A stretch of DNA of 51,254 bases, filler included, from Jimgerdemannia flammicorona (lineage: Eukaryota): NCBI GenBank assembly GCA_003990765.1. It is 2 parts of 2 records of this genome, joined end to end, with 100 filler letters (N's around TTAATTAATTAA, not from the genome) between each part and the next. Parts side by side here need not be neighbours in the genome. Positions count along the whole stretch, not along the records: positions 1 to 25,581 come from RBNJ01000818.1; 1 more part is not named here. The stretch is one strand, 5' to 3'. The notes under the pieces are model-generated. The model saw only the letters and a list, made by a program, of their open reading frames with translations. It did no database searches and was not told the DNA's origin. Both the position numbers and the translations under genes were made by a program. Every line of letters begins with the position of its first letter. The stretch's first letter is position 1. Positions 9,147 to 12,852 of the stretch are shown here, one piece after another.

Positions 9147-11543
9147 ATGCAGAGACACACCGCAATTTTTGCGCTCTTCTGTCTCTTGTACGTCCTGCTC
9201 ATCGCCTCTCCTCTGGCGTTGGCTGATGACAAGAAGGAGGAGTTTGGAACTGGTACGTATGAAGCTCATGTTCAATTTATCTACTTCGCAGCCCTGCATC
9301 TGTGATTGAGCGAGCTGAAAGGCTCGTGGTCGAGTCGACGATGCCTATGCATCCCAGAACATACCGAATGCCGCCGCCATTGTCCAGCTCCCGAAAAGCC
9401 CTCTCAATGGACCATGATTGGCATTTCTCAATCAACACATTGACTACATGTTTTGAATCTAATGGCACATCTCTACTTCTTTCTTGCACATCCAGTCATT
9501 GGCATCGATCTAGGAACAACTTACTCTTGCGTCGGCGTCCAAAAGAACGGTCGCGTCGAAATTATCGCCAACGATCAAGGTCACCGAATCACCCCCTCCT
9601 ACGTCGCCTTCACTGATGACGAGCGCCTAATCGGCGACGCCGCAAAGAATCAGTACGCCTCGAATCCCACTCGTACCGTCTTCGACGCCAAGCGCCTGAT
9701 TGGCCGTCGCTTTAGTGATAAGGAGGTCCAGGCCGACATGAAGCATTTCCCTTTCAAAGTCATTCCCCGAGAGGGTAAGCCCGTGATCGAGGTTGAGGTC
9801 AAGGGTGAAAACAAGATCTTTACCCCCGAAGAAATCTCTGGCATGGTCTTGATCAAGATGAAGGAGACCGCTGAGGCTTACCTCGGCAAGAAGGTGCATA
9901 TCTATGAATATTACCTGTATTTCCACATATACGAGGACGACACTTTCTCATATGTTCATGCGCCATGGTAATTTAGGTCACCCACGCTGTCGTCACCGTC
10001 CCCGCCTACTTCAACGACGCCCAACGTCAGGCCACTAAAGATGCCGGCACCATTGCTGGTCTCACTGTCCTTCGTATCATCAACGAGCCCACGGCCGCCG
10101 CCATTGCGTACGGCCTTGACAAGACCGGTGGCGAACGCACTATCCTCGTCTATGATCTCGGCGGTGGTACCTTCGATGTCTCCCTCCTCTCCATCGACGA
10201 CGGTGTTTTCGAGGTCCTGGCAACCGCCGGTGACACCCACTTGGGTGGTGAAGATTTCGATAACCGCCTCATTGATCACTTCGGCAAGACCTGGAAGAAG
10301 AAGAACGACAACGAAGACATCACTAAGGATCTCAAGACCATGGGCAAGCTCAAGCGTGAAGTTGAGAAGGCCAAGCGTGCTCTTTCCTCCCAAATGTCTG
10401 TCCGCGTCGAGATCGAATCCTTCTTCCAGGGCAAGGATTTCTCTGAGACGCTCACCCGCGCCAAGTTCGAGGAGCTCAACAACGATCTCTTCCGCAAGAC
10501 CCTCAAGCCTGTCGAGCAGGTCCTCAAGGACGCTAACCTCCAGAAGACCGACATTCACGACATTGTCCTTGTCGGCGGCTCTACTCGCATTCCCAAGGTT
10601 CAGCAACTCCTCGAAGATTTCTTCAGTGGCAAGAAAGCCTCTAAAGGTATCAACCCTGACGAGGCCGTCGCTTACGGCGCCGCCGTCCAGGGTGGTATTC
10701 TCTCTGGTGAGGAGGGTTCTGACAAGGTCCTCTTGCTCGATGTCAATCCGCTCACTCTTGGTATTGAGACCACTGGTGGTGTCATGACCAAGTTGATCCC
10801 GCGTAATACCGTCATCCCCACCAAGAAATCTCAGATTTTCTCGACCGCCGCCGATAACCAGCCCACCGTACTCATCCAAGTATTCGAGGGTGAACGCGCC
10901 ATGACCAAGGACAACAATCAACTCGGCAAATTCGAGCTCACTGGCATCCCGCCGGCTCCCCGTGGCGTTCCTCAGATCGAAGTCACATTCGAGATTGATG
11001 CCAATGGTATCCTCAGGGTTAGCGCTTCTGACAAGGGTACTGGCAAGTCCGAGGCCATTACCATCACCAACGACAAGGGTCGTCTCTCTCAGGAAGATAT
11101 CGAACGTATGGTTCAAGAGGCGGAGCAATTCGCGGAGGAGGACAGGGTTCTTCGCGAGAAGACTGAGTCGAAGAACGCGTTGGAGAACTACTTGTACGGC
11201 CTCAAGGTAAGGCATTCCTCCATTGAAACAATTACACGATGCTAAATGTTGGCTGCTGTTCATAATTCTAATTATATGCACTTTTCTAACATTCCAGACT
11301 CAACTTGCGGACGATTCTCAGCTGGGTGGCAAGGTTTCATCCGAGGACAAGGAAACTATCTTGGCGGCCGTGAAGGAGAAGATCGATTGGTTGGAGGAGA
11401 ACTCGGGTTCGGCCACTAAGGAAGACTATGACGAGAAGCGCGAGGAGGTTGAAGCCATCGTGAACCCAATCACCTCGAAGTTGTACGGCACCGGTGCCCC
11501 CCCGTCGGAGGACGAGCCGTTGGAACCGCGCGATGAGCTCTAA
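9147..11543 (+). CDS. KAR2: ER Hsp70 chaperone BiP/Kar2; exons 9147-9252, 9496-9893, 9977-11206, 11298-11543; 659 aa
   Basis: Signal peptide [26 protein letters not shown]; Hsp70 signatures [39 protein letters not shown]-terminal RDEL; three GT-AG introns keep the frame. Confidence 0.97.
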
Positions 11544-11973: not shown

Positions 11974-12747
11974 ATGTCCGAAAGCGCCCATCCCTCCGGT
12001 GACGAGCTCGACGCTGATCTCAAGGAGCAAGATCGCTTCCTACCCATCGCAAAGTACGCTTTCCCCCATCACATTTAGAGTCTTACCCTCCCTGGTCGCT
12101 CTTAATCTGCAATGTTGACCCATCTACACCTCTACTCTCCCTCCCGCTTCCAGCGTCGCCCGCATCATGAAGCGTGCCCTCCCTGAGAACGCCAAGATTG
12201 CCAAGGAGGCCAAAGAATGTGTCCAGGAGTGCGTCTCCGAGTTCATCTCGTTCATCACCAGCGAATATCCTCTGAATGCCATCTACTTTATTCGCATGTT
12301 CCTTTGATCGCCGTCTTTGGAACCCTTTGAGCACGGGCATGCGGGGTGAACTTGGAGACCCCATTTTGTTGTTTCTCCTTAACTCTTCCGAGGAATCTCC
12401 TTCCTCCAATTACAGCCAGTGACCGGTGCCAGCAAGAGAAACGGAAAACGATCAATGGCGAAGATATCCTTTGGGCAATGCAATCTCTGGGCTTTGAGAA
12501 CTATGCAGAGGCGCTCAAGATCTACCTCTCCAAGTATCGTGAGGTGCGTTTGGCCATCAATTATATATATTCCCATACCCACCTTCTCGCTGGTCCTGAT
12601 CGTCCACTGACCTGAGATGTGTCCTTGCGCACCCCCTCATCCCCGCCTCCCCTATTCCCCTTGCGCCGGCAGACGACCAAGATCGAGAGGGCCACAGCCA
12701 CAATGAAGGAAAAGGATGATGAGGGTGGGCTGTTCATGCAGCAACAG

Positions 12748-12788
<41 letters not shown>

Positions 12789-12852
12789 GGTCGCCGCCGC
12801 GGGTTATTTTCAGGGGATGGCCCCCCACTTCATGGAGAACCCGCAGAGCTGA
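11974..12852 (+). CDS. HAP3: CCAAT-binding factor subunit B (NF-YB/Hap3/HapC), histone fold; exons 11974-12053, 12154-12264, 12414-12543, 12673-12852; 166 aa
   Basis: The spliced product reads [90 protein letters not shown], the conserved NF-YB core. Confidence 0.95.
12265..12413 (+). other. U12-type (minor spliceosome) AT-AC intron, NF-YB intron 2, 149 nt
   Basis: 5' end ATATCCTCT, U12 branch box TCCTTAAC at 12376-12383, 3' end AC at 12412-12413. Removal restores ITSE/ASDRC exactly. Confidence 0.9.
12739..12789 (+). repeat. CAG/CAA repeat encoding Q17 in the NF-YB C-terminus
   Basis: 17 consecutive CAG/CAA codons. Confidence 0.95.

Follow-up and report, generated by a model that had tools for sequence, protein, structure and literature searches.

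The NF-YB/HAP3 gene of Jimgerdemannia flammicorona holds a 149-nt AT-AC intron in the middle of its histone fold, which is removed precisely between positions 12264 and 12414 and very probably by the U12-dependent minor spliceosome. NF-YB-family proteins form the CCAAT-binding trimer together with NF-YA and NF-YC. Positions count along the window, i.e., the whole 51,254-nucleotide stretch of DNA that was analysed, of which 1-25581 map to contig C818 and 25582-51254 lie off that contig. Papers given by PMC number are represented throughout by excerpts.

Gene structure, splice signals and transcripts

By translation, the NF-YB gene consists of four coding exons encoding 167 residues (Table 1). 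Both exons flanking intron 2 match PF00808 (CBFD_NFYB_HMF), at adjacent positions 8-42 and 44-65 of 65, and the PDB chains nearest to exon 3 are those of HapC and NF-YB (best match HapC, 4g91_B, 75.8 bits), with an NC2-beta-type match far behind at 25.8 bits; judged by its predicted histone fold, the gene is nearer to NF-YB/HAP3/HapC than to NC2-beta. Most of the best-scoring homologues come from Mucoromycota and Zoopagomycota. A quick tree of 94 rows and 65 columns, from which rows were omitted if they contained stops, had no readable next exon, or duplicated a previous locus row, leaves 63 of its 88 branches open and does not order events; it sets the window protein beside those of Phycomyces, Umbelopsis, and Rhizophagus, grouping it with Mucoromycota. 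One NF-YB locus was found among five scored candidates in the genome, the other match, elsewhere, being NC2-beta-like, and because the assembly is fragmented (35354 contigs), a second NF-YB copy is possible. Within the gene, a CAG/CAA tract (12737-12790) encodes the polyglutamine run of exon 4. Upstream, an Hsp70 of BiP/Kar2 type, recognised from its translation with a C-terminal RDEL, occupies about 9977-11543 on the + strand and ends some 430 nt before the NF-YB start.

Table 1. Features of the NF-YB/HAP3 gene in the window
Feature	Position	Strand	Evidence or remark
Coding exon 1 of NF-YB/HAP3	11974..12053	+	Translation; tblastn-type match to P0041; RNA contigs
Intron 1, ordinary GT-AG (U2-type), 100 nt	12054..12153	+	Joint 12053-12154 in 4 of 4 RNA runs
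Coding exon 2, first part of histone fold	12154..12264	+	PF00808 positions 8-42 of 65, E 8.8e-13
Intron 2, U12-type AT-AC, 149 nt	12265..12413	+	Sequence; 12264 joined to 12414, with AT..AC ends, in RNA runs X1, X2, and X4 (3 of 4)
U12-type 5' splice site ATATCCTCT	12265..12273	+	Sequence; predicted duplexes with own U11 and U6atac
U12 branch site TCCTTAACTC	12376..12385	+	Predicted 9-bp duplex, one bulged A, with own U12 candidate, -10.3 kcal/mol
AG near branch site	12391..12392	+	About 10 nt past branch; use would add 7 residues in frame
Acceptor AC (12412-12413) abutting exonic AG (12414-12415)	12412..12415	+	Ready YAG 2 nt downstream
Coding exon 3, rest of histone fold	12414..12543	+	PF00808 positions 44-65; PDB HapC match
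Intron 3, ordinary GT-AG, 129 nt	12544..12672	+	Joint in RNA runs X1 and X2
Coding exon 4, polyglutamine tract and stop codon	12673..12852	+	Translation; partial RNA cover

Exon 2 ends within the Glu codon of ITSE (phase 2), with ...ACC AGC GA closing at 12264, CAATTAC closing the intron at 12413, and the next exon opening as A GCC AGT GAC. Every intron coordinate given by an earlier, sequence-only reading of this DNA proved right on re-reading. That reading had also held that an AT-AC pair, and no GT-AG pair, restores ITSEASDRC. Enumeration of in-frame, stop-free GT-AG, GC-AG, and AT-AC pairs (donors 12190-12399, acceptors 12300-12499) bears this out, since the pair 12265/12413 is the only one to yield FITSEASDRC; gene models with a GT-AG or GC-AG pair around the site were rejected, none of them restoring the motif. 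Retention of intron 2 would place a stop 13 codons past the split codon. Given this early stop and the one NF-YB locus found, full-length protein needs this splice, and the further proposal that CCAAT-factor supply depends on it holds just as far as that single locus and the null product of retention carry it.

The donor ATATCCTCT fits RTATCCT(Y), reading ATATCCT, and is predicted to pair with the genome's own U11 (-3.5 kcal/mol) and U6atac (-6.6 kcal/mol). A TCCTTRAC-type branch motif, TCCTTAAC, stands at 12376-12383, with the predicted branch A at 12381 or 12382, and the stretch before the acceptor is pyrimidine-rich. These donor and branch pairings with the genome's own U11, U6atac, and U12 candidates agree with the U12 class that had been proposed. 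The intron resembles the U12-type AT-AC introns described in passages of PMC3584512 in its RTATCCT donor, TCCTTAAC branch, AT-AC ends, and phase 2, but differs from them in two off-optimum traits, namely a C at donor +8, where the TCCTT run is broken, and a distance of 31-32 nt between branch A and intron end, above the stated optimum of 11-13 nt (PMC3584512) and within the -40 scoring window used elsewhere (PMC2846911, PMC11347168).

Computed from local base frequencies, the chance of finding the donor 7-mer at a fixed site, the branch motif in any of 31 offsets, and AC at a fixed site is ~5e-9. Genome-wide, the donor, branch, and AC pattern gave 112 matches, as against 115 for a reversed control; the pattern is not enriched, so the case for this intron is carried by its position in a conserved frame and by its RNA joint, and we rejected the count as a sign that the genome has many minor introns. 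In the window, no other donor and branch pair was found, one of 16 donor-like sites having a branch motif within 400 nt.

Transcripts were compared in four (X1-X4) of the 20 available RNA runs. Contigs of X1, X2, and X4, runs that carry three study codes, skip exactly the 149 nt, joining 12264 to 12414 as the sequence-only reading predicted; one base at the joint fits either side, and the shifted reading would have TA..CA ends. Intron 1 is skipped in all four runs and intron 3 in X1 and X2, which identifies the contigs as RNA. Runs X1 and X2 possibly share their source with the assembly, while X4, a root metatranscriptome, differs from the window at one exon base and so likely represents another individual. 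Run X3 has no spliced joint at intron 2; its unspliced pieces, at depth 3-4, lie over introns 2 and 3 and could be either DNA or pre-mRNA. Since these pieces cover intron 3 too, we make no claim of minor-intron-specific retention, and assembled contigs give no retention levels. No joint at the AG at 12391-12392 or at that at 12414-12415, whose use with this donor would shift the frame, occurs in the RNA contigs of the four runs, contigs being apt to drop rare forms.

The machinery that would remove the intron

A working minor spliceosome had been proposed for this genome, and its U11, U6atac, U12, and U4atac candidates, together with PDCD7, support the proposal. U11 scores 65.4 bits (Rfam cut-off 39), and U6atac has 14 matches, the best at 80.4 bits (cut-off 33). 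The U12 candidate is sub-threshold (46.3 bits against a cut-off of 53, E 5.6e-6), with its 5' half well matched and its branch-pairing stretch intact. Relative to the Rfam models, U12 (L009:992-1160) carries a 33-nt insertion near the Sm region and U11 (L010:1501-1641) an 18-nt insertion in the first stem-loop. PDCD7, listed as U11-59K in PMC3584512, scores 52.1 bits (cut-off 27), and CCDC84/CENATAC gives a weak match over 31 positions.

For U4atac, the Rfam search at E 0.001 returned nothing in the genome, and two complement-based patterns returned nothing or only U6atac copies. A relaxed search gave a divergent candidate on contig C5115 (12259-12383, + strand; L178:1501-1625) with 39.3 bits against a cut-off of 53 (E 0.0027), at a threshold where nine of 14 control genomes also give matches, none over the cut-off; a G-U pair and a single flanking base had hidden it from the complement patterns. 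The 5' end of this candidate forms 16 contiguous pairs with the genome's own U6atac, a duplex energy reached by 0 of 500 shuffles, a second short stretch pairs with the U6atac stem-I region, and an Sm-type site is present. A local scan assigns the candidate to U4, whose model belongs to the same clan, at 31.4 bits against a cut-off of 46. Taken over these candidate components, the minor spliceosome of this fungus is likely complete.

In the established minor pathway, a U11/U12 particle binds donor and branch together and a U4atac/U6atac.U5 particle then joins (PMC3584512). Applied to the NF-YB intron, U11 and then U6atac would pair with the donor from position +4 onward, U12 would pair with TCCTTAACTC and bulge the branch A, U4atac would deliver U6atac, and the AC lying 31-32 nt downstream of the branch A would be used as acceptor, rebuilding the Glu codon of ITSEASDRC in mid histone fold.

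Removal by the major spliceosome, as a U2-dependent AT-AC intron, is in our judgement very unlikely. Such introns exist (PMC2831892), and the pyrimidine-rich stretch before the acceptor and the long branch distance would suit one; they have G at +5, however, according to passages of that paper, whereas the NF-YB donor reads ATATCCT with C at +5, its branch motif pairs over 9 bp with U12, and the orthologous sites in loci L077 and L066 (see below) keep U12 donor and branch together. We give similarly little credence to a U12-type intron whose splicing employs a hybrid machine with U4 in place of U4atac, an arrangement proposed in PMC11347168 for lineages without detectable U4atac: no U4atac scores over the cut-off, the complement patterns found none, and the candidate also scores on the U4 model, but 16 bp of complementarity link its 5' end to the genome's own U6atac, with which its stem-I region pairs too. 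An artefact, whether from an ambiguous alignment, a misassembly, or a gene copy in decay, is scarcely credible, as the one ambiguous base at the joint and the many contigs of the assembly are outweighed by the same joint in three runs, an intact frame, normally spliced neighbouring introns, and relatives with the same signals, and is already refuted by the RNA joints unless those contigs were mis-assembled alike.

The snRNA genes have features of their own. Six of eight U6atac copies examined (L001, L004-L008) have direct repeats of 10-18 nt on either side, as would retroposed copies with target-site duplications, and such snRNA retrocopies have reportedly been described in mammals. Copy L002, which has no direct repeats and a TATA-like upstream stretch, is therefore likely the source gene, and L138 is a duplicated, internally deleted U6atac copy with the same upstream region. 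The U6atac (L002) and U12 (L009) genes have in common an upstream CCATAACC...CCCCCAAAAC motif, possibly an snRNA promoter element, which has four matches in the genome, two of them new, and none in the control; neither new place has an Rfam match.

Further AT-AC candidates were sought among the 112 pattern matches, of which 30 loci (24 distinct places) were examined. When the flanking exons of 13 candidate loci were compared with Pfam, one locus had matches for both flanks, three had a match for a single flank, and nine had none. In the first, L147, the candidate splits a TatD (DNase) domain in frame with both flanks matching; the one-sided matches are L155, L157, and L165. PDB searches had no match for either L155 flank or for the upstream L145 flank, and the downstream L145 flank matched importin-9 weakly. 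The genes of the one-flank candidates (L165, L155, L157, L145) are an RFX DNA-binding protein, DNA-PKcs, an RNB-domain nuclease, and importin-9. In all five loci, L147 included, the putative intron stands at position 1501 on the matched strand.

The same codon in other organisms

A pattern for the 14 codons before the site found at least 118 metagenome loci. Among the 118 listed, 59 have no intron at the site (some may be transcripts), 33 have a GT two bases downstream, 19 have a U2-type GT at the same site, and the donors GTATCCT, GTATCCA, and ATATCCT stand at the site in three, three, and one; at L117 and L121, the donor alone is in view. Locus L077, with a Mucoromycota-like protein, has an AT-AC U12-type intron at the site with branch TCCTTGAC, and the animal-like L066 has a GT-AG U12-type intron there with donor GTATCCTTT and branch TCCTTGAC. 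The next exon of L066 is nearest to the NF-YB chains 1n1j/4awl (81.5 bits against 65.7 for plant-type and 64.6 for HapC-type chains), which we take to be human. Comparison across orthologues, suggested by the sequence-only reading, finds the same codon position U12-type in a further Mucoromycota-like contig and in an animal-like one. Same-site U2-type introns occur in plant-, alga-, or protist-like contigs, labels that come from peptide resemblance alone. Since a fungal and an animal-like gene have U12 status at one phase-2 position, the intron would be older than the fungus-animal split, and the site is likely ancient, its intron position probably inherited from before that split and then kept, converted, or lost by lineage. 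Separately, three plant/alga-like NF-YB loci (L029, L061, L098) have donor GTATCCACA at the same site, two of them (L029, L061) with TTCCTAAAT near the acceptor, and their intron is possibly a decaying U12 intron.

Annotated proteins deviate at this junction. The conserved motif is not read there in 41 of the best 120 homologues, comprising 32 of the 101 named by NCBI/nr and nine unnamed ORF calls, and in 12 of the 41 a U12 donor or branch site has left traces in the translation. Six named proteins contain ITSEYP, the translation of GA/ATATCCT (Apophysomyces ossiformis, Rhizophagus clarus, Gigaspora rosea, Syncephalis pseudoplumigaleata, Dichotomocladium elegans, and Gongronella butleri), and six further deviant proteins contain a translated branch motif before T-ASDR, branch-type peptides having a background rate of 8 in 401 windows. 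In eighteen deviant homologues, some of the helix is missing or a different segment stands upstream; two forms among these, FITTSDR and EFISDR, are products of canonical pairs in the enumeration. Such deviations would most likely arise through mis-modelling of the gene. The expectation that standard predictors mis-model it accordingly finds support in relatives. As the site deviates in 32 of 101 named homologues, mycorrhizal fungi included, family surveys would misjudge the NF-YB histone fold.

The GT two bases downstream raises the question of intron sliding. Because the next exon starts with AG (AC/AG), a U2 acceptor is already present 2 nt downstream, and two donor substitutions would turn GA/ATAT into GAAG/GT with the protein unchanged. 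The 33 shifted loci include 28 with a HapC-type next exon, three without a next exon in view, and two of other types (L070, L080). Six unnamed read-through proteins whose exon 3 resembles that of Mucor or Rhizopus point by their translations to this shifted GT donor, and are nested among relatives keeping the AT-AC donor. Four named Mucorales proteins (P0003, P0103, P0110, P0111), scattered among relatives with the normal reading, contain ITSESSDR, the product expected of a one-step intermediate of a 2-nt slide; this may reflect an AT-AC intron annotated at a shifted position or a genuine slide intermediate. That an ancient minor intron was repeatedly converted to the major class in fungi by a 2-nt slide is a tentative suggestion which we think somewhat unlikely: loss plus separate gain of an intron after the exonic AG explains the data too, and intron sliding is described as very rare (PMC10639083). 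If true, sliding would offer AT-AC introns a repeatable means of escape, and the site would be a datable case of it.

Relation to published minor introns and meaning

Minor introns in non-Dikarya fungi are already published, and the NF-YB intron is a further case. Excerpts of PMC10639083 give 205 for Rhizophagus irregularis and 249 for Basidiobolus meristosporus, with none convincing in Dikarya, and AT-AC introns are reported in Rhizopus oryzae and Phycomyces blakesleeanus (PMC2846911); Rhizophagus, Basidiobolus, Rhizopus, and Phycomyces are, like J. flammicorona, non-Dikarya with minor introns and minor snRNAs. NF-Y and CCAAT are not mentioned in the main texts of these two papers or in one supplement PDF of PMC10639083, although the online intron lists of both may hold an orthologue, nor is NF-Y in the main texts of PMC3291851, PMC2831892, and PMC11347168. 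A literature search gave no paper on an NF-YB minor intron, and the supplementary tables of PMC11347168 and online intron databases may list one.

The snRNA set can be set against that of Bifiguratus adelaidae, in which U11, U12, and U6atac are detectable; several mucoromycote and zoopagomycote fungi have no high-confidence U4atac, and the excerpts report divergent U4atac candidates for two other fungi only (PMC11347168). In contrast, a divergent U4atac candidate was identified here via its pairing to the genome's own U6atac. Published conversion routes comprise a subtype switch followed by conversion of U12 to U2 (PMC2831892) and, in nematodes, a three-codon splice-site shift from AT-AC to U2 (PMC2846911). 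The NF-YB site likewise shows U12 AT-AC, U12 GT-AG, and U2 GT-AG across taxa, but its GT-AG intron at +2, present in several fungal groups, is a phase-changing offset of a kind not described in the excerpts of those papers.

Knowledge of where minor splicing occurs is unchanged by the NF-YB intron. The divergent U4atac candidate is relevant to a published suggestion, namely that fungi of this kind may lack U4atac. Further, a single codon of NF-YB shows a U12 AT-AC intron, a U12 GT-AG intron, a U2 intron in place, a U2 intron shifted by 2 nt, or no intron, making this site a compact test case for the conversion or loss of minor introns.
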